A stretch of DNA of 19,248 nt from a virus. Lineage: Duplodnaviria > Heunggongvirae > Uroviricota > Caudoviricetes. Location of the stretch: the IMG/VR virus record IMGVR_UViG_3300021600_000003, positions 1 through 19,248 of that record; one strand, 5' to 3'. Positions 1,623 to 15,223 of the stretch are shown piece by piece (the stretch's first letter is position 1; the number at the start of each line of letters is the position of its first letter). The position numbers and the translations under genes were made by a program. Below the pieces are notes generated by a model. It had not been told where the DNA came from and ran no database searches. It saw nothing but the letters and a program-made list of their open reading frames with translations.

Positions 1623-1630
1623 CAAATTTA
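1623..1630 (-). promoter_or_regulatory. Possible Bacteroidota -7 promoter element (TAAATTTG, followed by C)
   Basis: Matches TAnnTTTG and overlaps the stop codon of the 157-aa gene, 65 nt before the next ATG. No TTTG -33 element at 19-21 nt spacing, so it may be chance. Confidence 0.3.
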
Positions 1631-2101
1631 TTTCAAATTACCAAAACTTTCTACTACTTTTCTTACTTCCTCTGGAGAAACGAATGCTTGCTCGACAAAA
1701 TCAGTATCTTCCCATGGTCCAAACTGATCCCAACGTAGGAAGTTTTCTGATTTTAGTAGATTTTTATTCTCAGGATATCCAAATATCTCAGGATCACTTT
1801 TACCAAATAGAACTATTCCGTTCTTTAAACCCTTAAAGTTGAAATGAACCATATGTGGAAAGAAGTTCTCTACAGATATAAACATATCTGCTCCTCTCAT
1901 TAACTCTATTAACTCTTTAGAGGATAATCCAAACTGGGTTGCAGAAGCTAATTGTCTTTCTCCTAGAGCTCCAACTTGTATAACTTCATGATTATCAGCT
2001 AGTAATAGAGATATTAAAGGTTGCCAATATGGATAATTCTTAGGGTGAGGAGTATCTTTTTCTCTTAACTGTTTACTAAATGGTGATATTATAATTTTCA
2101 T
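1628..2101 (-). CDS. GT9 (heptosyltransferase-like, GT-B fold) C-terminal donor-binding half encoded as its own gene
   Basis: IISPFS...HPKNYPYWQPLISLL...EVIQVG..GE...LSSKELIELMRGADMFISVENFFPHM...GIVLFGKSDPEIFGYPEN follows the GT9 C-domain pattern (hP.s...K.Wp...l...L..v..G...e...sL.el..li..adl.i..Ds...Hla...v.lFG.t.p..wgP). Confidence 0.7.
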   Translation of the reverse strand: MKIIISPFSKQLREKDTPHPKNYPYWQPLISLLLADNHEVIQVGALGERQLASATQFGLSSKELIELMRGADMFISVENFFPHMVHFNFKGLKNGIVLFGKSDPEIFGYPENKNLLKSENFLRWDQFGPWEDTDFVEQAFVSPEEVRKVVESFGNLK

Positions 2102-2184
2102 TCTTTCATTTTTATGTGTAAGATTTCTTCTACCTGCATACGATTTTTTAGGTTACTATCCAACCATGTTTGTTTAAATGTCAT
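2098..2184 (-). CDS. 28-aa mini-ORF bridging the two GT9-like halves
   Basis: MTFKQTWLDSNLKNRMQVEEILHIKMKE*. Its ATG overlaps the upstream TGA (ATGA at 2184-2181) and its TGA overlaps the downstream ATG (ATGA at 2101-2098). It fills the 79-nt gap exactly. Confidence 0.5.
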   Translation of the reverse strand: MTFKQTWLDSNLKNRMQVEEILHIKMKE

Positions 2185-3197
2185 AGATACATTCTCCTGA
2201 AACCCTCTATAAGATGGATTTTCTCTTTTGTATCCCATAGTAATTTATATACTTGGAAAGGTGTAATATCTCCATATATAGCTTTAGCATCTGCTATAGA
2301 AATAATGTTTAACTCTGGCTCATCCCAAAAGACATCTGGAAAACATGCTGCTATAGTAATATGTTTATGTTTTTCCTTTAATTCTGGTAAGATATTCTTA
2401 AAAGCCCAATGATCTCCAATTCCACAATCTAATATAACCATCTTACTATCTTCCTCAGATACATTCCAAAGTGATAGATAGGCTTTGAATATCTTCTCAT
2501 CATGTTCCCATAATATTGGGTCATTAAATGTACGAATACCTCCTTCTCTAGCTTGGAAGTGATATACCTGAGCATTCATATTTACCATTAATTTATATCC
2601 TGCTCTCTTGAGTGAGTGAGAGAATATAGTCTCTTCACGGTGAGCTACGGTAGATAATGTCAAATCATAGTTCATCAATCCTTTTCTGTATAGAAAACAT
2701 GAATAAAGATGATCTGCTTCGTGAATACCTTCTCCTTTAAACCATTGGATATTAGGTGTTTTTAGGTTATCTATTCTATTTTTGAGTCCTACTGGGAGTG
2801 GCTGAGGATTAGGCATAGTGACAGAAGGAGCAACAGCACCAATCTTCTCGTCCTTAGATATGATTGCATTTAGTTTTCTTAAGGTTTCTGGTTCAGCAAT
2901 ACAATCATCATCGATTCGGAAGACTAATTCTGTCTCAGCACAATCCTGAATCATCTGATGGGAGTGATGCTGACCTTTCTTCACTCCAAATTTAACCTGC
3001 CACTTTATGTTCTTCTCGTCAAATAGACGGAAGATATACTCATAATGTGGAATAGTGGTAAGATTTATTGGCTTATCACTATCATCTACAATAATAACCT
3101 CATATGGAGGTACAGATTGTAACGCAATAGATAAGAGAGTCTTATCCAGACTCTCATATCTATTTTTTGTGGGGATACCGCAAGTGATTTTAGTCAT
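2181..3197 (-). CDS. GT2-family glycosyltransferase fused to a GT9-like N-terminal module
   Basis: GT-A motifs CGIPTKNRYESL, IIVDDS, VFRIDDDC (DxD) and AHREETIFS. The last ~88 aa (KMVILDCGIGDHWAFKNILPELKEKHKHITIAAC) resemble the GIGD start of GT9 acceptor domains. Confidence 0.8.
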   Translation of the reverse strand: MTKITCGIPTKNRYESLDKTLLSIALQSVPPYEVIIVDDSDKPINLTTIPHYEYIFRLFDEKNIKWQVKFGVKKGQHHSHQMIQDCAETELVFRIDDDCIAEPETLRKLNAIISKDEKIGAVAPSVTMPNPQPLPVGLKNRIDNLKTPNIQWFKGEGIHEADHLYSCFLYRKGLMNYDLTLSTVAHREETIFSHSLKRAGYKLMVNMNAQVYHFQAREGGIRTFNDPILWEHDEKIFKAYLSLWNVSEEDSKMVILDCGIGDHWAFKNILPELKEKHKHITIAACFPDVFWDEPELNIISIADAKAIYGDITPFQVYKLLWDTKEKIHLIEGFRRMYL

Positions 3198-3273
3198 TTA
3201 AGTAATTTATTGCATTATATTGCTTCTTCTTGTATTCTAGATTCTTCTGTTTCTTTTCTTCTAACGTTTGCAT
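3190..3273 (-). CDS. Possible 27-aa Lys-rich mini-ORF overlapping the end of the giant enzyme and the start of the next gene
   Basis: MQTLEEKKQKNLEYKKKQYNAINYLND*, preceded by AAAAACAAAT. It starts just after the point where the GT2 domain ends like its sister domains (LKNKY versus LLERY, LLQKY, LYNKY). Confidence 0.25.
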   Translation of the reverse strand: MQTLEEKKQKNLEYKKKQYNAINYLND

Positions 3274-6200
3274 ATTTGTTTTTAAGTAATTGTGTTTTCT
3301 CTTCTGTTCTTTTAGGAGCCATTCCTGTTGATTTCACAGTATAGGTTAATAACTTCTCGGGATTATGGATAAATGAACAACCTAAATCATCTAACCTTAA
3401 CCACATATCCCAATCCTCTATACTATCTAATCTATCATCAAAACGTTGGTGAGATAAAACATGATATCTACACACTACTCCTGATATAAAGATAAAAGGT
3501 GTCTCTAACATTATCTTTCCACCGGGATACTCTAGAGGATCTGGTATACCATACGGAATTGCTTCTTGACCATTATCGAATTGATGTCGAACTGATGAGT
3601 ATATAATATCATTGATGTCGATTTTATTTAACTGTTTCATCATGTAATCTTTATCCCATATATCATCGCTATCACAGAAGGCAATATGTGTAAAATCTCC
3701 ACTTGTTACTTTATTTAATCCCATATTACGAGCAGATGATGGACCACCATTCTCTTTCTCTATAATAGTAATCTTAGGATGACTAGCTAGAATTTTTACT
3801 GCTTTTTGTCTATCTTCACTACCATCATCTATTATAAATAATGTCCAATTAAGGAATGACTGTCCTGTGATTGCTGATACTGACTTTAAAAGATTAGCTT
3901 CATCATTATAATAAGGCATAATTATAGCTACTTTGCTTACATCTAGTAATCCCTTATCTGTTAAATACTGTTGATTTTCTTGTACAAAGATAGGAAAACT
4001 ATGATCAATTTCCCATTTTTTTGTAATTATATTAGAATTTCTTCCAAAATGCTCTCTTCCCTGTGAGATAAGATAATTAATACGAGTACTATCCTTATAC
4101 TCTAAAGTATTTAACTCCTGATGAGCCCATCCTTCTAATTTCTGTATAATAGCTTTACTACCACCCATCCATGAGAAATGCCATCCACCATCAGATATCT
4201 TTTGGTCATTAGACATCTCCTCATATCTTAATCCTGTTAGAGATAATTTTCTTTCTCTTATAAACTTCATTGGAGCTATACGTGAGAAGGTAGAAGGTGC
4301 TATAGTAGAAATACCTACATTATAGTTAAGATAATAACTAAACTGATTCTGCTCAAAGAATTTAGGTTCTTCATAGTTATCAATCTTACTAGCTCTAGGT
4401 ATTTCATCTAAATCAGATACTATAATCATATCCTCATCTTTAGCTATAGGTTCTAGAGCATTTATTATAAAGTCTCTCTGATGATGTTCTCTTACCCAAG
4501 GATCAACAGTTTCTATATTTGGTGGGATAACGATTATAATCTTATCTGACCATTTAGCAAAAAGTTCTAGATTCTCTGATAGATATAATGGTTTAGGCTT
4601 ACCTGAATGAGTTTGTTCCATTTCAGATATGATAAAGTAATCTACCTGATTATATAACTCATTTAATCGTATCTCTAATAAGTCTAACTCATTAAAGAAA
4701 GAAAAACAATCAAATACTTTATAACTTCTTGTTTGTGAGGAAGTTATTAATTGCTTATCTTTATAATATTGTAAGTTATCCTGTACATACTTTGGATGAT
4801 TAGAGAAGTCTATTATCTTAGTAAAGTGTAAATTTCTTCTAAAAATATCTTTACCATTTAATATAGCATCTTCTAAATGTTGGTCATTAGTAAAGTAGTC
4901 ATTATTAAATTCAGAGTGTGAGTAGGCTTGAATCTTCTGTTTAACAGATTTAACATCTCCTAAGAATGAGAAGTGCCATCCACCATTAGGAATAATCATA
5001 TTATATACATAATCATCTTTACCTCTATAACTCTGCATATCCTTTCCAAATAAAGCTGAGAATGGGAAGATACGAGCTTTAAACCATCTCTCCTCTATCT
5101 GCCAATCTAACTTATAGTAGAATAAAGACATCTCAATAGCACATACTCCCATATCTACTTGATACTTCTGTATTACTTCTTTTCTTACTATCTCATCACA
5201 ATCAGACATTATAATAATATCATTAGGCTGATAGTCAGCTAAACCATCCATTATAGCACGTCTCTGATAATGTTCTCTATCCCAAGTAGATGTACAATTA
5301 GGAAATTCATGTAGTAATATATAATGTACCTTATCTGCTTTATCTCCTAGAGATTTCCAGTCAAAATACATTGGTTTTGCATTCCCTTGATGGTCAAATA
5401 ATGATTCTACCACAACAAACTTATCTACTACATCATATAATTCCTCTACACGCATCTTAAATAACTCTACTTCATTATAGAAAATGCATGTATCAATTAC
5501 TTTACCTCTAGGGATAGGTTGTTTAAACCATTTCTTATAACGATTTTCAGGTAATACATACCAGATATTAGCTCCACTAAACACATTTTCCCTTCCAAAT
5601 AAGTCATATAAGGCAGGTGCTACACTATCATTCCACTGAATATCATGACCAGTAATCAGACATCCATCCTTAACTTTTGGAAGCCAAGCTTTTACATCTC
5701 TTTGAACTCCCTCATAACGATGGTCAGCATCTATGAATACTAAATCACAAGATTTATCATTAAATAAGAAAGCAGAATCTGCACTATCCATAGGATATAT
5801 CTTAACATAATCTGTTAATCCAAATCTCTCAATATTGTCTTTAAAGATTTGAAGTAAGTCCATACCTTTTACTTGTGCACCATCTTCCATTTCCCAAGGT
5901 GAACCTTTAAATGTATCAATAGCATGTACTTGTATATTCTTCTCTTTGATTATTTCTGCAGCAGAACATAATGAACGTCCCATCCATACACCAATTTCAG
6001 CCATTACTCCTCCATCTGGAATTCTTCTAATTAATTCTTTATAGAATGCTTGATCATCCCATCCAAACCATCCTCCGGGTAATTCTTTCTCTAGATAAAC
6101 ACCATACTTATTATATAAGTGATGAACATATTGTTCTAAACGTTGTTTGGATTGACCATATAATGGAGCAAATGTACCACCACCTATATGCATAATAGGA

Positions 6201-9088
6201 AAACTACCAACTCTACTAGAGTCTCCCTGATTTTCATGATTGTAATTAATATCCTCTGGAGTCTCTACTAATTTGAATCCTGCTTGTTGTGCACGAATAC
6301 AAAAGTCAACATCTTCATGATAACCTTCTCCAAATATTTCATCAAGTAAACCTATTTCCTTAAAGACTTCTCTTTTAATCATAACACACCAAAATAACAT
6401 ATATTCTGCACGTACATCATCTCTCCAAGCTTTCATAGGTCCAACAATACCTACATTATCTACAAAACGAGTTAGTAGTAACTTAATCCATTGATCCTTT
6501 TCTTGAGGACGTAATTCTACATCATTATTTAGAAGAATAATAAATTCACCCATACTTTCCTTTATACCTGCATTAGTAGCTTTGATAAAACCTACTCTTT
6601 GATCTATCCAGTATAACTTAAAAGGATTACCTAGTGAGTAAACATACTCCCGTGTGGCGTCAGTACAACCATTAGCTACTATAATTACCTCAATCTCTGT
6701 TAAGTCTGTATATCTCTGAATAGAAGCAATACAACCTTTAAGTAAATCTAGATTATTATATGTAGGAATTACTATAGATATACGAGGCTTTGTAGGATAT
6801 TTCTGTAGAAGAGAGGTCTTTTTAGTAGAATCCCAAGTAGATATTCCTATTAATTTATTCTTCTCTAGAGAAAATGTCATGGCATCTTTATGGATAAGAG
6901 GAAATTCTCTCCATAGTTGATTAGGATTATTTGATAGATATTCTTTGGTTAGACTTAAGTCATCTTTTCTATCGGTAGGAACTTGTACTAACTTATATCC
7001 TAACTTCTTTACACGAATAGCAAAGTCTATATCTTCCTCATATCCCATTCCAAAATCTTCATCCAATAAACCAACTTTATCTATAATAGCTCGGGTTGTC
7101 ATAGCACAAAAGAATACCATATACTCTTCTCTAAAGGTTAATACATTATCATCCCAAAAGAATCTCCAATCTTTATATGGACCAGTTATACCTACATTAG
7201 TACCTTCTATAAATGGCTTTTTCAAGATATTAAGCCATGTAGATTTAAGTACCTCAGTATCATTGTTTAAAAAAACAATATACTTACCTATAGCAGCTCT
7301 TATTCCTGCATTGGTAGCCTTAATAAAGCCTACAGGTTCATCTATCCATATTAACTTAAATGTACCTCCTAGACTATCTACATATTGTTTAGTGTCATCA
7401 GTGCATCCATTAGCTACAACTATAACTTCAACATTACTTAAATCTGTAGTGTTTATAATACTTTGAAGACATGATTTAAGACAGTCTTCTAAATGGTTAT
7501 ATGTGGGTATAATTATTGATACGTCTTTCACAGGGTCTGTTTTTTCTAATTTAAAAGGGGTATATCTAAACATAGAAATACCTTTTCTCATTTCAGGATT
7601 AGGACTTTCATATGCAGATATTAGTTGCATATCAGGTTTATACTCATAAAAGAAACGAGTTACACCTTCACATGCTATGTGGTCATGATAAGCAAAGATA
7701 GCTCCATCTGCAGCATACTTCTTAGCTAATTCTGTATCCTTAACTACGTCTTCGTACTCGTGCCCAGCATCTATAAAGATAAAGTCGAACTTTTTACCTT
7801 CAAGAAATTTTTCTACTTCTGGAGCATGACTATCCCCACGGTAAATATCTATCTTTCCAGTATTCTGACAGTTTAGAAGATTCTGACGATAGTTTAGAGG
7901 ATAGTTCATATCAGCCCAGCCAATATCTATAGTAGTAATATCTTTAACCTGAACTACATCACAGAATATACGTGTTACTCCACCATCAGCTACTCCTATC
8001 TCTAGATAGTGTTCTACCTTTAAATCTCTGCAGTCAAATAAGTATTCTGATAATTCATCTATATCTTGCTGTAGACAATATCCACCTTGAAATCTTCCAC
8101 CAAATTGGTAGAGATTTTTACTTCCTGCACTTAATACAAATTCTCTTATACTCTCAAGAGAAGATATATCACAAAGATTTTCATTTCTGTTAAGAAGGGG
8201 AGTACCATCTTTCCCAATAAATATACCATTAGCAAATCCACCTCTAGAGAGAGCCATACGTGTTCTATTATCTATGGTAGATGTCATTTTTCCATCCTCT
8301 GCCAAATGAGCAGTAATCTTATCTAGACGAGGAATAACTTCCCAACTATTAACTGTGTCAAGTAAGTTACCTATCTCTATATGTTTAGCTTTATCTTTAT
8401 ACCTCTCGAGAAGAATAGCTTCATTCCTTGGAACAACTTGTGACCATTCAGGTACCTCATTTACTGTGACTGACCCTTTATGCCATATAGGAAATTGTAA
8501 GATATGTTCATCAGTTGGACGAACAGTTGTAAGAGATATCTCATTTGGTACCTGAACTATCTTATAACCAAGCTGTTTTAATTTATGACAAAAGTCTATA
8601 TCTTCTCCATATCCGGGATTAAAGATTGGATCAATTCCTCCAACTCTTTCTAAGATATCTCTTCTAGTCATTGAACAGAAGAATAATATAAACTCACTCT
8701 CTGTTTCTTTATGATAGTTTTTAGCTGCTCCTGTTATACCTACTTCATTATCCAATAAAAAAGGAGCTTCTAGCATTTCCAGCCAGTTAGCTCCCATTAT
8801 CTGTAAATCATTATTTAATAAAATTATGTATTCTCCCTTACTAACCTCAATACCCATATTTGTAGCATTAGTAAAACCCAATGCTCTATCTACAGATATA
8901 GAAAATATATTAGGATATCTTTTATGTAATTCATAAATATAAGATAGAGTACCATCATCACTACAACCATTAGCTACTACAATTATCTCAACATCTTGTA
9001 AATCAGTATGTTGTATAATACTTTCTAAACATGGTTTTAGGCAATCCTCAAAATGCTTATATGTAGGTATAATTATTGAATACTTCAT
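3215..9088 (-). CDS. 1957-aa eight-module glycosyltransferase/methyltransferase (GT2-MT-GT2-GT2-MT-GT17-GT17-GT2)
   Basis: Three GT2 modules with SII(I/V)PTY, IVVANGC, (L/F)LNND and Y(G/E/H)EDxDF motifs. Two Methyltransf_24-like modules (LEIGVADGG..FIDAGHEYEDV..YHDH; AEIGVWMGRS..FIDADHRYEGV..GHDI). Two GT17-like modules (F(Y/F)NE..R..ELY..VD.F, RE..QR, SD(C/L)DEI, GGWHFS(F/W)). One canonical C-terminal GT2 (IMPYYN, IIDDGS, ARNMG, FCDSDD, EDWDMWLR). No signal peptide or obvious TM helix. Confidence 0.92.
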   Translation of the reverse strand: MKYSIIIPTYKHFEDCLKPCLESIIQHTDLQDVEIIVVANGCSDDGTLSYIYELHKRYPNIFSISVDRALGFTNATNMGIEVSKGEYIILLNNDLQIMGANWLEMLEAPFLLDNEVGITGAAKNYHKETESEFILFFCSMTRRDILERVGGIDPIFNPGYGEDIDFCHKLKQLGYKIVQVPNEISLTTVRPTDEHILQFPIWHKGSVTVNEVPEWSQVVPRNEAILLERYKDKAKHIEIGNLLDTVNSWEVIPRLDKITAHLAEDGKMTSTIDNRTRMALSRGGFANGIFIGKDGTPLLNRNENLCDISSLESIREFVLSAGSKNLYQFGGRFQGGYCLQQDIDELSEYLFDCRDLKVEHYLEIGVADGGVTRIFCDVVQVKDITTIDIGWADMNYPLNYRQNLLNCQNTGKIDIYRGDSHAPEVEKFLEGKKFDFIFIDAGHEYEDVVKDTELAKKYAADGAIFAYHDHIACEGVTRFFYEYKPDMQLISAYESPNPEMRKGISMFRYTPFKLEKTDPVKDVSIIIPTYNHLEDCLKSCLQSIINTTDLSNVEVIVVANGCTDDTKQYVDSLGGTFKLIWIDEPVGFIKATNAGIRAAIGKYIVFLNNDTEVLKSTWLNILKKPFIEGTNVGITGPYKDWRFFWDDNVLTFREEYMVFFCAMTTRAIIDKVGLLDEDFGMGYEEDIDFAIRVKKLGYKLVQVPTDRKDDLSLTKEYLSNNPNQLWREFPLIHKDAMTFSLEKNKLIGISTWDSTKKTSLLQKYPTKPRISIVIPTYNNLDLLKGCIASIQRYTDLTEIEVIIVANGCTDATREYVYSLGNPFKLYWIDQRVGFIKATNAGIKESMGEFIILLNNDVELRPQEKDQWIKLLLTRFVDNVGIVGPMKAWRDDVRAEYMLFWCVMIKREVFKEIGLLDEIFGEGYHEDVDFCIRAQQAGFKLVETPEDINYNHENQGDSSRVGSFPIMHIGGGTFAPLYGQSKQRLEQYVHHLYNKYGVYLEKELPGGWFGWDDQAFYKELIRRIPDGGVMAEIGVWMGRSLCSAAEIIKEKNIQVHAIDTFKGSPWEMEDGAQVKGMDLLQIFKDNIERFGLTDYVKIYPMDSADSAFLFNDKSCDLVFIDADHRYEGVQRDVKAWLPKVKDGCLITGHDIQWNDSVAPALYDLFGRENVFSGANIWYVLPENRYKKWFKQPIPRGKVIDTCIFYNEVELFKMRVEELYDVVDKFVVVESLFDHQGNAKPMYFDWKSLGDKADKVHYILLHEFPNCTSTWDREHYQRRAIMDGLADYQPNDIIIMSDCDEIVRKEVIQKYQVDMGVCAIEMSLFYYKLDWQIEERWFKARIFPFSALFGKDMQSYRGKDDYVYNMIIPNGGWHFSFLGDVKSVKQKIQAYSHSEFNNDYFTNDQHLEDAILNGKDIFRRNLHFTKIIDFSNHPKYVQDNLQYYKDKQLITSSQTRSYKVFDCFSFFNELDLLEIRLNELYNQVDYFIISEMEQTHSGKPKPLYLSENLELFAKWSDKIIIVIPPNIETVDPWVREHHQRDFIINALEPIAKDEDMIIVSDLDEIPRASKIDNYEEPKFFEQNQFSYYLNYNVGISTIAPSTFSRIAPMKFIRERKLSLTGLRYEEMSNDQKISDGGWHFSWMGGSKAIIQKLEGWAHQELNTLEYKDSTRINYLISQGREHFGRNSNIITKKWEIDHSFPIFVQENQQYLTDKGLLDVSKVAIIMPYYNDEANLLKSVSAITGQSFLNWTLFIIDDGSEDRQKAVKILASHPKITIIEKENGGPSSARNMGLNKVTSGDFTHIAFCDSDDIWDKDYMMKQLNKIDINDIIYSSVRHQFDNGQEAIPYGIPDPLEYPGGKIMLETPFIFISGVVCRYHVLSHQRFDDRLDSIEDWDMWLRLDDLGCSFIHNPEKLLTYTVKSTGMAPKRTEEKTQLLKNKYANVRRKETEESRIQEEAI
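3270..3935 (-). other. Module 8: canonical GT2 domain
   Basis: VAIIMPYYN, FIIDDGSED, ENGGPSSARNMGL, IAFCDSDD, IEDWDMWLRL. Confidence 0.88.
3950..5505 (-). other. Modules 6 and 7: tandem GT17 (MGAT3/GnT-III-like) domains
   Basis: IDTCIFYNEVELFKMRVEELYDVVDKFVVVES..WDREHYQR..SDCDEI..GGWHFSFLG..KQKIQAYSHSE (about 5505-4750) and VFDCFSFFNELDLLEIRLNELYNQVDYFIISE..WVREHHQR..SDLDEIPR..GGWHFSWMG..QKLEGWAHQE (about 4723-3950). Confidence 0.85.
5555..6090 (-). other. Module 5: class I SAM methyltransferase (Methyltransf_24-like)
   Basis: MAEIGVWMGRS, AIDTFKGS, PMDSADSA, LVFIDADHRYEGVQRDVKAWLPKVKDG, GHD. Confidence 0.88.
6105..7525 (-). other. Modules 3 and 4: tandem GT2 domains (ANGC/LNND type)
   Basis: VSIIIPTYNH..IVVANGCTDD..VFLNND..YEEDIDF (about 7525-6795) and ISIVIPTYNN..IIVANGCTDA..ILLNND..YHEDVDF (about 6785-6105). 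Confidence 0.85.
7550..8130 (-). other. Module 2: class I SAM methyltransferase (Methyltransf_24-like)
   Basis: YLEIGVADGG (motif I), TTID, RGDS, FDFIFIDAGHEYEDVVKD, YHD. Boundaries approximate. Confidence 0.85.
8400..9088 (-). other. Module 1: GT2 domain (ANGC/LNND type)
   Basis: YSIIIPTYKH, IVVANGCSDDG, ILLNND, GYGEDIDFC. Boundaries approximate. Confidence 0.85.
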
Positions 9089-9136: not shown

Positions 9137-9748
9137 TTATTTTACTTGTATAACTCCTATACCTGCCCAATCTGCAGTATTATCTAAAAACTCTTTCTTA
9201 TCTCCTTCTAACTCTTTCCAGAAACGATGTACCTCACAACTATAATCCTTATGAGTTTTTGTTTCTTTGATATCATGCATACCTATATATCCACCTTTTT
9301 TAACAAAAGGAAGATAATTATAGTAATCTGCCTTTACACCCTCATAAGAATGGTCTGCATCAATAAATATAAAATCTAATTTATCTTCTCCTAATTTCTC
9401 CTTAACCCAATCTATAGATACTTTCTCTTTTGTATCATTGAATAGAACATGACAGTTTGGAGCAAATGTCTCAAACATATGCTTATTTTGTTCAATCTCT
9501 CTATCAGTTCTTACATGACCTACTCCCCATGGTCCATTAGGTAAATCTATACCCAACTTAATTCCTCCGGGAGTAGCTATTGAACACCATACATAAAAGC
9601 TGCCACCCTGACATAATCCTAATTCAAGAAAGTTTTTAGGTTGTACTATCTTATCAACAAATTCCATAAAAGGAATAATCTCGTTAGGTAATTGTAATAA
9701 AGCTCCTGTTGTTAGAGCTGCTGTATTTGCTATTGCTTGATAGTTCAT
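9137..9748 (-). CDS. Stand-alone class I SAM-dependent methyltransferase (Methyltransf_24-like), probably a sugar O-methyltransferase
   Basis: FLELGLCQGGSF, LGID, LDFIFIDADHSYEGVKADY..FVKKGGYIGMHDI, VHRFWKEL, WAGIGVI. Same FIDAxHxYExV signature as the two MT modules of the giant enzyme. The sugar substrate is inferred from context. Confidence 0.88.
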   Translation of the reverse strand: MNYQAIANTAALTTGALLQLPNEIIPFMEFVDKIVQPKNFLELGLCQGGSFYVWCSIATPGGIKLGIDLPNGPWGVGHVRTDREIEQNKHMFETFAPNCHVLFNDTKEKVSIDWVKEKLGEDKLDFIFIDADHSYEGVKADYYNYLPFVKKGGYIGMHDIKETKTHKDYSCEVHRFWKELEGDKKEFLDNTADWAGIGVIQVK

Positions 9749-9749
9749 A

Positions 9750-10544
9750 TTAATATATTTTTTCAGTTGTTATATCAAGATGACCACATCTAATATTCGT
9801 ATCAACACATATCTTAAATCCTGCTTCTTTAGCCTTCTTGTAAAAGAATAAATCTTGAGTAAATCCTATTGGACCAGCTTCTGTCATTTCATTAACAGAT
9901 TTGAAGAATGGAGAAGATATCTTTCCACTCTCAAATATAGACCTTTTCATTAATGTAAAACCCATACCACTTCCATTAACATTTACTACATCTCCCGGTC
10001 TCCAGTTTATATTTACCTCAAATGGTTTTGAGGAGTTGATATCTCCATCTCCATATATAAGAGGAAGAGATGGATCACCTTTTGTCCAATATAATCCTGA
10101 GGCTATATCATAGCCACTCTCGAGGTGTTTATACATCTCGATTAAAGGTCCATATGTTCCGGGAATAAAAGGGATAATAACATCATCTTCCATGAAGAGA
10201 AGATACTTAAATTGAACAAGATTAGGATTTGTAAGAACTTGTTTAATAGCTTCTTCATAAGCTTCTCCTACTTCATGACCACTGACAACTAATTCAGTTA
10301 CAGGTACATTCATTGGTTTTATTAAGCGTTTCCAGCTTTCAACTATCCAAGGATGGAATCCCACTTGATATTCTATACATACATCTTTACCACACTCACA
10401 TTTCTTTGTGACTTCTTTCTTACCTCTTGTGGCAATTATAATTAAAGTAGCATAGTTTTTATAGGAATTTCCCTCTATAAATAGATTTTTCCATGCTTTG
10501 TTTTCACTCTCATCAATGAGAGTATCTAATTTTTGTACTTCCAT
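9750..10544 (-). CDS. GT-A fold (GT2-like) glycosyltransferase
   Basis: LIIIATRG, YLLFMEDDV (DxD-like), IASGLYW, NGSGMGFTLMKRSIFE, PFF, TQDLFFYKKAKEAGFKICVDTNIRCGH. Its stop is 1 nt before the next ATG. Confidence 0.8.
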   Translation of the reverse strand: MEVQKLDTLIDESENKAWKNLFIEGNSYKNYATLIIIATRGKKEVTKKCECGKDVCIEYQVGFHPWIVESWKRLIKPMNVPVTELVVSGHEVGEAYEEAIKQVLTNPNLVQFKYLLFMEDDVIIPFIPGTYGPLIEMYKHLESGYDIASGLYWTKGDPSLPLIYGDGDINSSKPFEVNINWRPGDVVNVNGSGMGFTLMKRSIFESGKISSPFFKSVNEMTEAGPIGFTQDLFFYKKAKEAGFKICVDTNIRCGHLDITTEKIY

Positions 10545-10575: not shown

Positions 10576-13500
10576 TTACATTGCTGTTAATAATATCCAA
10601 GGTTTTCTTAAACCTAGTGCTATATCATTATATACAAATCCAGTAGCTGTACTAGCAACACTTGTTACTACAGCATTTGTTGTAGCATTACTATGACCCC
10701 AATAAGGAACCATAGCATTATTAAGTCCTGCTACACTTGCTACAGTTGTTGAGCCAGCTATATTAACAGTACCTGCAGCACTACTCATACCATATAAAGT
10801 AGCTGCTAAGTTTCCTCCTGTTAAGAAAACATAACCAAACCACCATTCTCCGGGAGTTAAGCTAACATTAGATGCTATTTGATAATATCTTATTGAAGAA
10901 TATCCACCCCACTGAGTAGCTACAGTTGATAAGTTACTTGATGCTGCATTACTTGACCATGACCAAGTTCCTGTAGCTGCACTAGCAAGAGATAATGTAT
11001 TAGCATTTTTAGTATAAAATCCTGCATATAAAGAGAAACCAGCTGTTACGTTAGTTGTTTGTGAAGCATTTAACATGAACTTCAAAGCTGTAGCATTTAT
11101 ATTTCCATCTACATAGAATGGAACAGCAAAGAATGAACCATGAGTAATACCACCATTAGGAAAAGGAACACCTTGGAATGGTTCAAATAAATTATATGTA
11201 GGTGCACCTGTACCACTATAACCAGAATATCCAGTATAACCACTATAACCACTATAGCCAGTGTATCCTGAGTAGCCAGAAATACCACTGTATCCTGAGT
11301 AACCACTAAATCCTGAATAACCACTAAATCCTGAACTACCTGTTGCACCACCACTGTACCCACTATATCCAGTATAACCAGAATATCCAGAAGGTCCACT
11401 ATATCCACTATAGCCACTTAATCCAGTATAACCAGAATATCCAGAAGGTCCACTATATCCAGAGTATCCTGAGATACCTGAATAACCACTAAAGCCACTA
11501 GTACCATTTCCTCCACCACTATAGCCACTATAACCTGTATATCCACTATATCCACTTATACCTGAGTATCCTGAATAACCAGAAATACCTGAGTACGCAC
11601 TATAACCAGAGTATCCAGAAGAACCACTATACCCACTATAACCACTAGAACCAGAATAACCACTAAATCCAGAAGAACCAGTACCACCTCCACTATAACC
11701 AGAATATCCTGTATAACCAGAGTAACCTGATAGACCTGAGTACCCACTAAATCCTGATATACCTGTATAACCAGAATAGCCTGAATTTCCTGAGTACCCA
11801 CTAAATCCACTACTTCCTGCTCCACCACCTGAATAACCTGAATAACCAGTAAAGCCTGAATAACCACTTATTCCACTATAACCACTGTACCCAGATAGAC
11901 CACTGTATGCAGAATAACCACTGTATCCTGACAGTCCACTATATCCACTAAATCCTGAACTACCAGCTCCTCCACCACTATATCCTGAGTAACCAGTATA
12001 TCCACTGTATCCACTTAATCCACTGTAACCAGAGAAACCACTTATACCAATATAACCACTGTATCCTGAGTTTCCTATGAATCCAGAGTAACCTGATAAA
12101 CCAGAATATCCACTATAACCACTCAATCCACTATATGCAGAATAACCAGATAATCCTGAATAAGCACTATAGCCACTTAATCCACTATAGCCACTAAAAC
12201 CACTACTACTAGAGTAACCACTATATCCTGTGTAACCACTGAATCCACTAGAACTGCTATAGCCTGAATATCCAGTGTATCCAGAGTAACCTGTATATCC
12301 TGAGTATCCGCTATAACCCGTATAACCACTATAACCACTTTTACCACTATATGCAGAGTATCCTGTATATCCTGAATAACCACTTATACCGCTATATGCT
12401 GAATAACCACTTATTCCTGAATAACCTGAGAACCCTGAAATACCACTATAAGCTGAATAACCTGTATATCCAGAGTAACCACTTAAACCAGAGTAAGCAG
12501 AATAACCTGATAGACCACTGTAAGCTGAATATCCACTGTAACCAGATATTCCAGTATAACCTGAATATCCTGAAGTACCTATATAACCTGAATATCCTGA
12601 ATAGGCTGAGTAACCACTAATTCCAATATATCCACTATATCCACTTTCACCAGCTAATGTAACAGATACTGATATATTTTGATTGTTGGTAAATGTACCT
12701 CCACCTGTAACATATGTTACTGTATAACCATCATATAATGGAGAACCTGCACTTCCAAGATTTACATCTATATGCCAAATATGTGCTTTAGATAAATCAC
12801 TAGGATCAAATATCATAAAATGATCACCGGGACCAAGACTATCTAAGAAAGCATCCATTGGTAAACTAAACCTATCTAGTTCAGATAGATTAATTTGTGT
12901 AGTAGATGAATAAGTAACAGGATCACTAAAGTTTATAAATCCAGCTGCAGGATTTCCTCCAGTAGAATTACTCCATTGATAATCTAGAGTAAATCCTCCA
13001 ACATTTCCACTAAATCCTGAGTTTCCTGAGTATCCTGAGTATCCACTTATTCCAGTATAACCACTATAACCACTAGTTCCTATGAAACCACTATATCCAG
13101 AATATCCACTAATACCACTTCCTGAGTAACCAGAATAACCAGTATAACCCGAATAACCACTGTATCCAGTATATCCTGAGTAGCCACTCTTTCCAGAGTA
13201 ACCAGAGTATCCACTAATACCAGAGTAACCTGAGTAGCCTGTATAACCACTAAAGCCACTAATACCTGAATAGGCTGAGTAACCACTATACCCACTTATA
13301 CCACTTCCGCTATAACCTGAATATCCACTCAAACCTGAGTATGCAGAATAACCACTAAATCCTGATTGACCACTATAACCACTATAACCAGAAGAACTAC
13401 TATAACCTGAATAACCTGATGAACTACTATAACCACTATACCCTGTATATCCAGAATATCCCGAATAACCAGTATAACCACTGTAACCACTCTTTCCACT

Positions 13501-14910
13501 GTAGGCAGAATAACCTGAAATACCTGAGTAGGCAGAATAACCTGACAATCCAGAATAAGCTGAGTAACCAGATAGTCCTGAATAACCAGAGAAACCAGAT
13601 AGTCCACTATATCCTGAATACCCTGTGTAACCACTGAATCCTGATAAACCTGAATATGCAGAGTATCCACTTAGTCCAGAGTATGCAGAGTATCCTGATA
13701 AACCACTATATGCTGAATATCCTGATATACCAATAAAGCCACTATATCCACTTATTCCACTATAAGCTGAGTAACCAGATACACCACTTCCTGAATAACC
13801 ACTATATCCAGAACGTCCTGAATATGCTGAATAGCCACTGTAACCACTAGTACCAATAAATCCACTGTATCCACTAGTACCTACTGTTGCTGTACCATCA
13901 TAACCACTCCATCCAGAACGTCCACTATATCCACTATAACCTGATGCTGCTGAACCATTTACAACAAATCTTCCAGCAAAACGTTTATCAGGAGTTCCTA
14001 AAACTGTAACTCTTACAACATTAGAAGAAATTTCTTCTACTAAATATGGAGTTACAAGGAAAGGAGTAGATGTCATATCCCATATATCTACAACTAAATT
14101 GAAAGAGTTTAGATTATGAGTAAAATCTATATAGTAATTTCCTCCAGAGGAAACCCAGTCTACTAGAGAAAATACTTGACTCCAAGCTACAGATCCACTT
14201 CCACTATATCCAGAAAAACCACTACTTCCTATTCCACTGTAACCACTATAACCACTAATACCTATTGGTCCAATATAACCACTGTAACCACTTAATCCTA
14301 ATCCACTATAACCTGACCAGCCACTCAAACCACTGCCACTATAACCAGAGTACCCAGTCCAACCACTTTTGCCACTATATCCACTATATCCAGTTCTCCC
14401 ACTTATACCACTATAGGCTGAGTATCCACTAATACCTAGTCCACTATATCCACTCCAACCTGATATACCACTACCACTATAACCAGAATAACCACTATCT
14501 CCACTGTAAGCTGAGTATCCACTCTCTCCTGAATATGCAGAATAACCTGATAACCCCGAGTAGGCAGAATAACCACTTGCACCTAAATAACCACTGTAAC
14601 TAGAGTAGCCACTCTTACCTGAATAGGCTGAGTAACCTGACAATCCTATACCAGAGTAACCACTTATACCCCTTCCAGAATAGCCCGAGAATCCAGAGAA
14701 GACAGCATCACCATCTCTTCCAGAATAACCAGAGTAACCAGATTTTCCATCTATACCATCTGATCCTTGTGCTTGATTACAAATCTTATTTAAAATCGAA
14801 GTGAGTGACTCACCTTTTGTAGTAGGGACACATAACTTTCCCGGACAGTCATCGACTATCTGGGATATACCTATTTCAGGATCAGTGACTACTATGTATT
14901 TCTTATCCAT
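10576..14910 (-). CDS. 1444-aa (Gly-Tyr-Ser)n repeat fibre-like protein, probable tail/head fibre or receptor-binding protein
   Basis: Cys-containing N-terminal cap and three Gly-X-Ser triplet blocks. A FTHNL..VVD.WD small beta domain and a GGFTLDYQW..NPAAG domain separate the blocks; both resemble spacer domains I recall from collagen-repeat phage fibres. Ends in a ~205-aa beta-rich domain (VPFYV..YAGFY..LTPGEWWFG). The virion role is inferred. Confidence 0.75.
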   Translation of the reverse strand: MDKKYIVVTDPEIGISQIVDDCPGKLCVPTTKGESLTSILNKICNQAQGSDGIDGKSGYSGYSGRDGDAVFSGFSGYSGRGISGYSGIGLSGYSAYSGKSGYSSYSGYLGASGYSAYSGLSGYSAYSGESGYSAYSGDSGYSGYSGSGISGWSGYSGLGISGYSAYSGISGRTGYSGYSGKSGWTGYSGYSGSGLSGWSGYSGLGLSGYSGYIGPIGISGYSGYSGIGSSGFSGYSGSGSVAWSQVFSLVDWVSSGGNYYIDFTHNLNSFNLVVDIWDMTSTPFLVTPYLVEEISSNVVRVTVLGTPDKRFAGRFVVNGSAASGYSGYSGRSGWSGYDGTATVGTSGYSGFIGTSGYSGYSAYSGRSGYSGYSGSGVSGYSAYSGISGYSGFIGISGYSAYSGLSGYSAYSGLSGYSAYSGLSGFSGYTGYSGYSGLSGFSGYSGLSGYSAYSGLSGYSAYSGISGYSAYSGKSGYSGYTGYSGYSGYTGYSGYSSSSGYSGYSSSSGYSGYSGQSGFSGYSAYSGLSGYSGYSGSGISGYSGYSAYSGISGFSGYTGYSGYSGISGYSGYSGKSGYSGYTGYSGYSGYTGYSGYSGSGISGYSGYSGFIGTSGYSGYTGISGYSGYSGNSGFSGNVGGFTLDYQWSNSTGGNPAAGFINFSDPVTYSSTTQINLSELDRFSLPMDAFLDSLGPGDHFMIFDPSDLSKAHIWHIDVNLGSAGSPLYDGYTVTYVTGGGTFTNNQNISVSVTLAGESGYSGYIGISGYSAYSGYSGYIGTSGYSGYTGISGYSGYSAYSGLSGYSAYSGLSGYSGYTGYSAYSGISGFSGYSGISGYSAYSGISGYSGYTGYSAYSGKSGYSGYTGYSGYSGYTGYSGYTGYSGYSSSSGFSGYTGYSGYSSSSGFSGYSGLSGYSAYSGLSGYSAYSGLSGYSGYSGLSGYSGFIGNSGYSGYIGISGFSGYSGLSGYSGYTGYSGYSGGGAGSSGFSGYSGLSGYSGYSAYSGLSGYSGYSGISGYSGFTGYSGYSGGGAGSSGFSGYSGNSGYSGYTGISGFSGYSGLSGYSGYTGYSGYSGGGTGSSGFSGYSGSSGYSGYSGSSGYSGYSAYSGISGYSGYSGISGYSGYTGYSGYSGGGNGTSGFSGYSGISGYSGYSGPSGYSGYTGLSGYSGYSGPSGYSGYTGYSGYSGGATGSSGFSGYSGFSGYSGYSGISGYSGYTGYSGYSGYTGYSGYSGTGAPTYNLFEPFQGVPFPNGGITHGSFFAVPFYVDGNINATALKFMLNASQTTNVTAGFSLYAGFYTKNANTLSLASAATGTWSWSSNAASSNLSTVATQWGGYSSIRYYQIASNVSLTPGEWWFGYVFLTGGNLAATLYGMSSAAGTVNIAGSTTVASVAGLNNAMVPYWGHSNATTNAVVTSVASTATGFVYNDIALGLRKPWILLTAM
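11205..12653 (-). repeat. GYS triplet repeat block 3 (about 483 aa)
   Basis: Longest block. Its distal part holds five TGYSGYS-GG(G/A)X-G(S/T)SGFSGYSG higher-order units. Confidence 0.95.
13005..13945 (-). repeat. GYS triplet repeat block 2 (about 313 aa)
   Basis: Recurrent SGYSAYSGL and SGYTGY units and YSSSSG substitutions. Confidence 0.95.
14195..14750 (-). repeat. GYS triplet repeat block 1 (about 185 aa)
   Basis: SGYSGYSG..SGYSAYSGLSGYSAYSGES.. with frequent G-X-G interruptions (SGRGIS, SGIGLS, SGSGIS, SGLGIS). Confidence 0.95.
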
Positions 14911-14986: not shown

Positions 14987-15223
14987 CTAATCCAAATCTA
15001 TCTTTTCATCAATTATCTCCATCTCAGGAATCTCAGGAATATCCTCAACTTCTAATCTTCCTTGAGACATTCTATGAGAAAATGGGTCCTCTATAAAGGT
15101 ACCCAAATCATCTGCTATACAGTTTTGAAAAAATTCATCTACATTCTTTTCCTCTAGTTGAAAGTAGTACTCATATGTTGAGATATAAATAACCTTTCCT
15201 GTGGGTAATGATATATTAGGCAT
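14987..15223 (-). CDS. Small acidic hypothetical phage protein
   Basis: 78 aa (LPTGKVIYISTYEY..DEFFQ..IEDPF) with an acidic tail. The ATG overlaps the upstream stop (TAATG, 15225-15221). It resembles from memory a small LPxGKxIxIS protein of Bacteroidota phages; this is unverified. Confidence 0.75.
   Translation of the reverse strand: MPNISLPTGKVIYISTYEYYFQLEEKNVDEFFQNCIADDLGTFIEDPFSHRMSQGRLEVEDIPEIPEMEIIDEKIDLD

Follow-up and report, generated by a model that had tools for sequence, protein, structure and literature searches.

The window analysed in this study, that is, the whole stretch of 19,248 nucleotides, is the first 19.2 kb of the 129,865-bp IMG/VR phage record IMGVR_UViG_3300021600_000003, which is estimated to be about 90% complete and codes for a portal (phrog_6547) and a large terminase (phrog_6681). 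The record contains a run of giant minus-strand open reading frames (ORFs) of 3156, 2087, 1689 and 1570 amino acids (aa), and at 10576-14910 on the minus strand the window holds a gene (P0001) for a collagen-like fibre protein of 1444 aa in a single frame without stops, followed by genes resembling glycosyltransferases (GTs). We propose that the product is a long homotrimeric collagen-like virion fibre whose Ser residues are, on balance, O-glycosylated by the linked gene cassette. The PHROG matches of the fibre ORF were tail-fibre families with collagen repeats, and its layout in the window is as follows:

10576..14910, minus strand: fibre gene P0001, 1444 aa; single open frame, Pfam Collagen match (1.3e-90), PHROG tail-fibre families.
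14782..14910, minus strand: N-terminal region, aa 1-43, with a Cys-x-motif (DDCPGKLC...GESLTSILNKIC), read from the translations.
14668..14781, minus strand: collagen-like segment 1, aa 44-81, more charged, from the repeat parse.
14185..14652, minus strand: collagen-like segment 2, aa 87-242, GYS/AYS triplets with five G-X-G register breaks, from the repeat parse.
13957..14184, minus strand: globular insert 1, aa 243-318, non-repeat sequence with no Pfam family and one weak relative.
12982..13956, minus strand: collagen-like segment 3, aa 319-643, from the repeat parse.
12667..12981, minus strand: globular insert 2, aa 644-748, a domain common to other G-x-Ser fibres by BLASTP.
11197..12666, minus strand: collagen-like segment 4, aa 749-1238, including five units that are 16-19 triplets long and each closed by GGG(A/T/N)G, from the repeat parse.
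10579..11196, minus strand: C-terminal beta-sandwich domain, aa 1239-1444, a predicted trimeriser (34 homologues, structure model, PDB match and trimer prediction).

The initial annotation of this stretch had described about 980 residues with Gly at every third position over 11205-14750, with mostly Tyr at X, Ser or Thr at Y and nearly no Pro. The phase-tracking parse confirmed this description: the four segments total 1009 residues over a matching span and resolve into 339 triplets, in which position 1 is Gly in 302 (89%), Ala in 27 (8%) and Ser in 6 (2%), or 99% for the three residues together. The X position is Tyr in 194 triplets (57%) and Ile, Leu or Phe in 76 (22%), so that 79% carry an aromatic or large aliphatic residue, and the Y position is Ser in 270 (80%) and Thr in 28 (8%). 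Gly recurs at a rate of 0.81-0.85 at offsets +3, +6 and +9 and of 0.06 at other offsets, while the longest in-phase run is 19 triplets for Gly and 44 for Gly or Ala, against a shuffle maximum of 12 (n = 2000). Pfam Collagen (PF01391) matched the fibre with 297.6 bits (cut-off 27.2), and Gly at every third residue over long runs, on which membership in this family depends, was found. The repeat, which holds 4 Pro and 20 Asp, Glu, Lys or Arg residues, lacks the Pro/hydroxyproline (Hyp) or charge-pair stabilisation on which the characterised collagens of animals and bacteria rely. Parse and Pfam match together support a collagen-type Gly-X-Y repeat almost without Pro and charge, as had been suggested.

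The parse also revealed features beyond that description, namely the two non-repeat inserts, the register shifts and the 206-aa C-terminal globular domain. About 14 register shifts were found, all of G-X-G or GGG(A/T/N)G type, and the GGG(A/T/N)G breaks are spaced by 16-19 triplets in the last five units. A continuous rod of about 280 nm, the total length proposed earlier, is rejected in view of the inserts and register breaks, which would divide a helical repeat into pieces of about 11, 45, 93 and 140 nm. Insert 2 matched P0014 (2e-13), P0030, P0028 and P0009 in BLASTP searches, as well as the collagen-like ORFs of loci L068, L323 and L325.

At the DNA level, the repeat uses both the AGY and TCN families of Ser codons (AGT 48%, TCN 51%), which cannot interconvert by one synonymous change, and GYS is spelled in 25 ways. 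The count of exact 12-18-nt DNA repeats was unchanged after synonymous codons had been shuffled among positions, and only the longest repeats (24-mers, one of 41 nt) exceeded the synonymous-shuffle expectation. Based on the mixed Ser codon families and the randomised synonymous sites, the array is old at the DNA level and kept at the protein level. Recent DNA-level repeat expansion was tested as the main cause of the array and is rejected, since only the 24-mers and the 41-nt repeat are in excess. Codon use in the repeat deviates from that in the rest of the genome (TAC 33% vs 11%, AGT 48% vs 30%, GGC 6% vs about 0%), which may reflect DNA-repeat avoidance or tRNA supply. The phage carries adjacent genes for tRNA-Ser(GCT) and tRNA-Ser(TGA), at 55250-55425 of its own genome, which read AGY and TCN and may help to translate the Ser-saturated fibre; no tRNA-Gly or tRNA-Tyr is encoded by the phage genome.

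The fibre is one member of a large class of viral fibres that seems not to have been described so far. With aa 376-643 as the query, at least 223 metagenomic proteins were retrieved, which are 794-2527 aa long and carry Pro-poor G-[Tyr/Phe]-Ser repeats; many of these proteins end in known fibre modules (Peptidase_S74, BclA_C, DUF2793, K1-lyase_C). The DNA pattern (Gly-Tyr-[Ser/Thr])5 was found in at least 119 viral stretches, giant-virus metagenome-assembled genome (MAG) contigs among them, in a set that contains some false positives (e.g. G014) and in which Thr-type arrays are commoner than Ser-type (72 vs 20 loci). Across 91 class members, the interior position 1 is Gly in 98.0%, Ser in 1.05% and Ala in 0.65%, with almost nothing else; the fibre at 10576-14910 is an outlier of the class in its Ala load, reading locally GYS-AYS-GLS. 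Long G-Tyr-Ser/Thr arrays were observed in the giant-virus MAG contigs L017, L024, L027, L035, L043, L076, L077 and L080, which extends the repeat chemistry beyond tailed phages. Locus L021 (record G002, IMGVR_UViG_3300025413_000107), a 27-kb viral contig, contains 320 overlapping (Gly-Tyr-Thr)5 matches at 10966-19856, amounting to several kb of nearly pure GYT repeat.

Literature searches on GYS/GYT repeats found no paper describing such repeats, and a PDB sequence search with the repeat returned only periodicity matches (animal collagens and a GAPGLQ fibril), with no structure of like composition. Against cultured phages, tblastn gave no match for the repeat, probably owing to the low-complexity filter, and none for the C-terminal domain or the upstream giant ORF.

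Downstream of the fibre gene, five genes on the same strand follow each other with gaps of 0-79 nt:

9750..10544, minus strand: 264-aa protein, lineage-specific, with a weak GT likeness (PHROG glycosyltransferase families, 9e-6; no Pfam family).
9137..9748, minus strand: 203-aa S-adenosylmethionine (SAM) methyltransferase, rhamnosyl O-methyltransferase-like (Pfam Methyltransf_24).
3215..9088, minus strand: 1957-aa multi-domain enzyme with four GT2, two GT17-like and two methyltransferase domains (Pfam).
2181..3197, minus strand: w338, a 338-aa GT2 protein with a conserved C-terminal domain, core gene of the cassette (full-length orthologues).
1628..2101, minus strand: w157, a 157-aa remote homologue of the C-terminal, sugar-nucleotide-binding half of GT9 heptosyltransferases (fold, profile and pairwise comparison) and an obligate partner of w338.

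The Glycos_transf_2 family matched the ORFs at 2181-3197 and 3215-9088 with 44.7 and 286.4 bits, respectively, above the curated cut-off of 23.3, which places both among the GT2 proteins. No transmembrane segments were predicted in the downstream enzymes. The w338 family has 72 invariant columns and the w157 family 31 invariant positions. The structure model of w157 (predicted local distance difference test, pLDDT, 79.5) matches the folds of WaaC, WaaF and the protein-Ser heptosyltransferase TibC with template modelling (TM) scores of 0.57-0.65; its profile matches WaaC residues 180-295 (E 0.0024), and the pairwise comparison with the C-terminal half of WaaC gave z 7.5. Even at E up to 10, Pfam Glyco_transf_9 (PF01075) matched nowhere in the genome. 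A GT9 N-terminal half was sought in w338, whose C-terminus gave z below 0 against the N-terminal halves of WaaC and WaaF; the w338-family profile found only the GT2 enzyme SpsA, weakly, in the PDB, and no usable match to the C-terminus of w338 came from the ESM Atlas. Since the pairwise test of the w338 C-terminus was not significant, the idea of a split GT-B enzyme is left with the w157 half and one fusion, the 1018-aa chain at L326 3379-6432 that joins w338 and w157. In a second fusion, a 2383-aa ORF (L266 3878-11026), several GT2 modules of the type seen in the 1957-aa enzyme precede a w338 module at the end of the chain; both point to the cassette modules belonging together.

The same genes recur beside related fibres. 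In each of three unrelated class members, GT2 genes lie beside the fibre gene, and BLAST searches against viral loci revealed a conserved order of a GT2 gene of about 420-445 aa, with or without a methyltransferase (MT) domain, a w338 orthologue (full-length identity 35-44%) and a w157 orthologue (37-44%). The first three GT2 modules of the 1957-aa enzyme are orthologous to this GT2(+MT) gene. The cassette adjoins G-aromatic-Ser collagen-like genes in L013, L019/L039, L048, L058, L071, L084, L118 and others, and relatives of w338 were found in at least 568 viral stretches. Among 77 loci found through w338, many of them truncated, 74 contain w157 and 46 the GT2-MT gene, and a G-aromatic-Ser/Thr collagen-like ORF is present in 50 at a median distance of 1 kb; where at least 4 kb was available on both sides, the collagen-like ORF was found in 18 of 22. 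Clustering of w338 at 70% identity gave 30 clusters, with a fibre in the examined DNA of 17.

The linkage is specific to Ser at the Y position. All 55 collagen-like ORFs beside w338 are Ser-type (Ser 84% and Thr 0.8% at Y), and within the pattern-derived set the cassette accompanies 8 of 20 Ser-type loci and none of 72 Thr-type loci (Fisher p = 1.4e-6), although Thr-type arrays sometimes adjoin other GT2 genes. When GT2 genes of any kind are counted, 17 of 25 records with (GY[ST])5 have one vs 9 of 47 with (GP[QKE])4 (p = 7e-5), and within the loci examined the figures are 18/119 vs 2/120, the (GP[QKE])4 control set differing in host range and GC content. Among 185,579 prokaryote species genomes, the w338 family is nearly absent, with 11 full-length hits that all lie on short MAG contigs of inconsistent taxa and are all accompanied by w157. 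These data show a virus-specific cassette of GT2(+MT), w338 and w157 that is linked specifically to Ser-type collagen-like fibres and is probably dedicated to them. The functional tie between the adjoining GTs and the repeat, earlier drawn from this one locus, has thus gained in strength, as the cassette co-occurs specifically with Ser-at-Y genes on many diverged contigs.

The arrangement was also found in a cultured phage. In the Methylophilaceae phage P19250A, gene P19250A_0023 (L335, KX815270.1, 4753-8358), annotated as 'tail length tape-measure protein', encodes a collagen-like protein of G-x-Ser type that has 1201 aa, 4 Pro and Ser in 80% of its Y positions, and is followed by w338- and w157-like genes; judged from its sequence, it is a mis-annotated fibre. 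A neighbouring gene product annotated as 'PE family protein' is a Gly/Ser/Thr-rich fibre-like protein.

Because of the specific linkage of the cassette to Ser-type genes, O-glycosylation of the Y-position Ser is well supported by context. Class members differ freely at X, where Tyr, Phe, Trp, Ile or Leu may stand, and keep Ser at Y; as X varies, Y stays hydroxylated and the cassette follows Ser vs Thr, the selected hydroxyl is the one at Y. We therefore consider it rather probable that the cassette enzymes glycosylate the Ser residues of the fibre. Several points weigh against this reading, on the side of the glycosylation as well as on that of the triple helix. The acceptor residue, the glycan and any folding role are inferred. 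The locus counts overstate independence, because many loci come from related phages and similar freshwater or soil samples. Moreover, the long-flank cassette loci L255, L262 and L291 carry no collagen-like gene, so that the cassette may serve other substrates or the fibre gene may lie further off.

The cassette loci without a collagen-like gene within 8-10 kb would also fit an unglycosylated triple helix, held by Tyr/Ser side-chain contacts and water bridges, with the transferases serving host-surface remodelling against superinfection, another virion protein or a free glycan. In pelagiphages, GTs encoded next to tail-fibre genes were taken to modify the O-chain of the host (PMC7029224), and bacterial collagens fold unmodified through hydration networks (PMC8968730). 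A host-surface role, however, leaves unexplained why the cassette tracks Ser-type fibres, both in the pattern-derived set and among the neighbours of w338; furthermore, the enzymes are soluble, without a membrane segment, and their family is nearly absent from cellular genomes. We consequently regard a bare helix as unlikely.

Concerning the assembly of the fibre, exhaustive HMMER searches found 34 relatives of the C-terminal domain, which always stand at the C-terminus and follow GYS repeats in three cases. A word-indexed search found none among the 794-2527-aa proteins, the HMMER relatives being shorter, and related-locus searches with this domain and with the 264-aa ORF gave no match. The AlphaFold 2 model of the domain is a beta-sandwich (pLDDT 71.7), with the best PDB match to 9jwb_Z (TM 0.51, E 4.5e-4), from the capsid asymmetric unit of cyanophage A4. 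This unit contains the trimeric gp25, described as its one protein with a carbohydrate-binding module (CBM) fold (PMC12002296), and the identification of chain 9jwb_Z with gp25 is our own assignment. No Pfam family covers the C-terminal domain, which thus lacks a BclA_C signature, and BclA (1wck) matches via the repeat only.

The initial annotation had called for a trimer prediction. Three copies of aa 1188-1444 scored 0.72, with the best control at 0.00; among proteins of solved structure, 20 of 30 pairs and 1 of 23 single chains attained this mark. The prediction runs agree in at least 29% of contacts, with a partner pLDDT of at least 55. The model supports binding between copies of aa 1188-1444 rather than showing it, and its confident contacts are all within the C-terminal domain, with none in the GYS part, so that the prediction answered for the domain and not for the repeat. 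A domain that could bring three chains into register is thus predicted directly beside the repeat. Because the confident contacts fall in this domain, the fibre is probably a trimer, and we hold the trimeric collagen-like fibre to be quite likely; the triple helix of the GYS repeat itself we infer.

The repeat carries Ala or Ser at about 10% of its Gly positions, locally in every third triplet, which is far above classical triple-helix tolerance, and aromatic X and Ser at Y are reportedly poor helix formers on the host-guest scale of Persikov et al. from 2000. The chain could accordingly be a flexible Tyr-rich tether, similar to the FUS-like [G/S]Y[G/S] stickers, or a polyglycine-II or beta-solenoid stack, the Pfam Collagen match then reflecting Gly periodicity only, as all PDB matches do. 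The missing Pro and charge stabilisation and the lack of confident inter-chain contacts in the repeat would agree with this. It is countered by the strict three-residue phase over up to 44 triplets and by the near-invariant Gly of the class, with exceptions limited to the two smallest residues; Gly, Ser or Ala alone at position 1 is the expectation for a tightly packed axial position and is not needed in a disordered Tyr-rich linker, which suggests a triple helix. In addition, a polyglycine-II stack calls for small residues at most positions, whereas X is large in 79% of triplets, and a bulky X in every triplet should be hard to fit between stacked polyglycine-II helices. The adjoining C-terminal domain is predicted to be trimeric, and relatives end in known trimeric fibre modules (BclA_C, Peptidase_S74). 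On the caution voiced earlier about Gly-to-Ala and Gly-to-Ser substitutions, the balance has shifted to a triple helix, since Gly at 98% of position 1 across the class favours it over a disordered or polyglycine-II chain; a repeat that is not triple-helical is, in our estimation, improbable.

Tyr O-glycosylation exists in the S-layers of Paenibacillus and Thermoanaerobacter and Tyr is the commonest X residue here, but glycans on Tyr instead of Ser are very improbable, as residues devoid of a hydroxyl (Phe, Trp, Ile, Leu) freely take the place of Tyr at X across the class, Ser being kept at Y, and as the cassette follows Ser vs Thr at Y and not the identity of X.

For the glycosylated trimer, the following mechanism appears most likely. 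The chain would begin with an N-terminal anchor followed by the four Gly-Tyr-Ser segments, reaching up to about 290 nm if fully helical, with its pieces joined by the two globular domains and by G-X-G/GGGA hinges. The CBM-like C-terminal beta-sandwich would trimerise and set the register of the three chains, and the Gly-X-Y segments would then zip into triple-helical rods. In the host cytoplasm, the soluble phage enzymes would use host sugar nucleotides to O-glycosylate the Y-position Ser, with about 300 Ser/Thr acceptors per chain and about 900 per trimer, and the short glycans would be extended and partly methylated. The sugars may hydrate and stiffen the helix without Pro or charge pairs and cover the tyrosine-rich surface. 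Such stabilisation is plausible because an aromatic residue at X and Ser at Y reportedly favour the helix little and because Riftia collagen and BclA offer parallels; that glycosylation is needed for folding is a tentative suggestion by analogy with them. Equally tentative is the wider picture of bottle-brush fibres in many environmental phages, and possibly giant viruses, in which virus-only enzymes (GT2 modules and a split GT9-like enzyme) might load nearly every Ser with a methyl-capped glycan and so allow or stabilise the triple helix.

Several known systems resemble this arrangement in part. The cuticle collagen of Riftia pachyptila and (Gly-Pro-Thr(Gal))n peptides, the model behind the initial annotation, have a triple helix with little Hyp that owes its stability to a sugar on the hydroxyl at Y; the Riftia protein comes from an animal and has Thr at Y and Pro at X, whereas the fibre described here has Ser at Y and an aromatic X. 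Transferase genes also lie near BclA-type genes. BclA is a glycosylated collagen-like protein for which sugar stabilisation has been proposed (PMC8968730). The BclA-like exosporium proteins of Bacillus and Clostridioides have in common with our fibre a long Gly-X-Y repeat, a hydroxy residue at Y and a C-terminal trimerising beta-sandwich, and O-glycans are present on the BclA repeat (PMC8968730), while those of the present fibre are suggested by gene context. The class relative P0002 even carries Pfam BclA_C. BclA differs in its (Gly-Pro-Thr)n repeat, where the present fibre has Tyr/Phe for Pro and Ser for Thr, and in its spore carrier and other enzymes, in place of which we find a phage particle, a virus-specific GT2/GT9-like cassette and no BclA_C signature.

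GT9 enzymes (TibC, AAH; WaaC/WaaF) possess the C-terminal donor-binding domain matched by w157, although w157 has only half of the GT-B fold and the Glyco_transf_9 family is not matched. TibC acts in the cytoplasm, where it glycosylates Ser residues of repeat proteins. The fibril proteins of giant viruses (Mimivirus) are glycosylated by virus-encoded transferases. Mycobacteriophage virions (Che8, Rita) are glycosylated by phage enzymes, according to the account of Freeman 2023 given in PMC11256854. Both systems share with ours virus-encoded transferases that decorate the virus's own structural proteins; their substrates are capsid, tail-tube or fibril proteins and not a Ser-saturated collagen-like fibre, and the enzymes are unrelated at the level tested. 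Other phage collagen-like fibres (E. coli O157 EPclA-type, PRD1 P5, mycobacteriophage minor tail proteins) form stalks between non-collagen modules, as here (PMC3368898), but have short, Pro- or charge-rich repeats with rare GT neighbours (2/120 loci, 9/47 records). A glycosylated collagen-like surface fibre is of a known kind, the Pro-free aromatic/Ser chemistry is unusual, and the cassette was previously unnoticed.

The placement of the fibre on the virion was considered from its N-terminus and from gene order. By eye, three tail-module proteins of this phage (354, 454 and 556 aa; 58425-62541 in the numbering of its own genome, minus strand) begin with the same N-terminal Cys motif as the fibre. 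In these proteins and in the fibre (14782-14910, minus strand), the Cys-rich motif ends in G-[DE]-[ST]-[LI]-x(2,3)-[LI]-x(2)-[IK]-x(3)-I. The shared motif may be a common docking peptide, and aa 1-43 of the fibre are likely to be its virion anchor. The homologous fibre gene lies after capsid genes in L013 and after tail-tip genes in phage P19250A, so that gene order in relatives would fit a place on either the head or the tail. 

Downstream of the cassette, the window encodes on the minus strand a 169-aa Gly/Thr/Val-rich protein of no known family (1048-1557) and a 228-aa protein with a weak, below cut-off match to BspA-type leucine-rich repeats (LRR_5; 355-1041), which may be further virion surface proteins. 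Upstream of the fibre gene, a small ORF of about 76 aa (MPNISLPTGKVIYISTYEYYFQLEEKNVDEFFQNCIADDLGTF...; about 14990-15222, minus strand) fills most of the 312-nt gap between the gene for the 2087-aa protein and the fibre gene. In a scan for sigma-70 promoters and terminators, promoter-like sites were no commoner than in shuffles.

Collagen stability has been explained by Hyp/Pro, by charge pairs, or by sugars on Thr, as in Riftia and BclA. None of these usual rules covers the natural, abundant class that combines an aromatic X with Ser at Y, which therefore offers a direct test of what else holds a triple helix; if the proposed reading is true, collagen stability would have been achieved a second time, independently, by a sugar-dependent helix. 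Enzymes able to glycosylate a triplet as simple as G-x-S within the cytoplasm of bacteria would also make a useful tool for glyco-engineering. In the literature searched, no paper on the fibre-plus-cassette module was found, and the module is common in environmental viral contigs, with its marker GT in at least 568 stretches; if the reading holds, it would represent an unrecognised, widespread form of phage virion glycosylation. Phage surfaces in lakes, soils and perhaps guts would then be far richer in glycan than assumed, with a bearing on adsorption, on adherence to mucus or particles, and on immune recognition.

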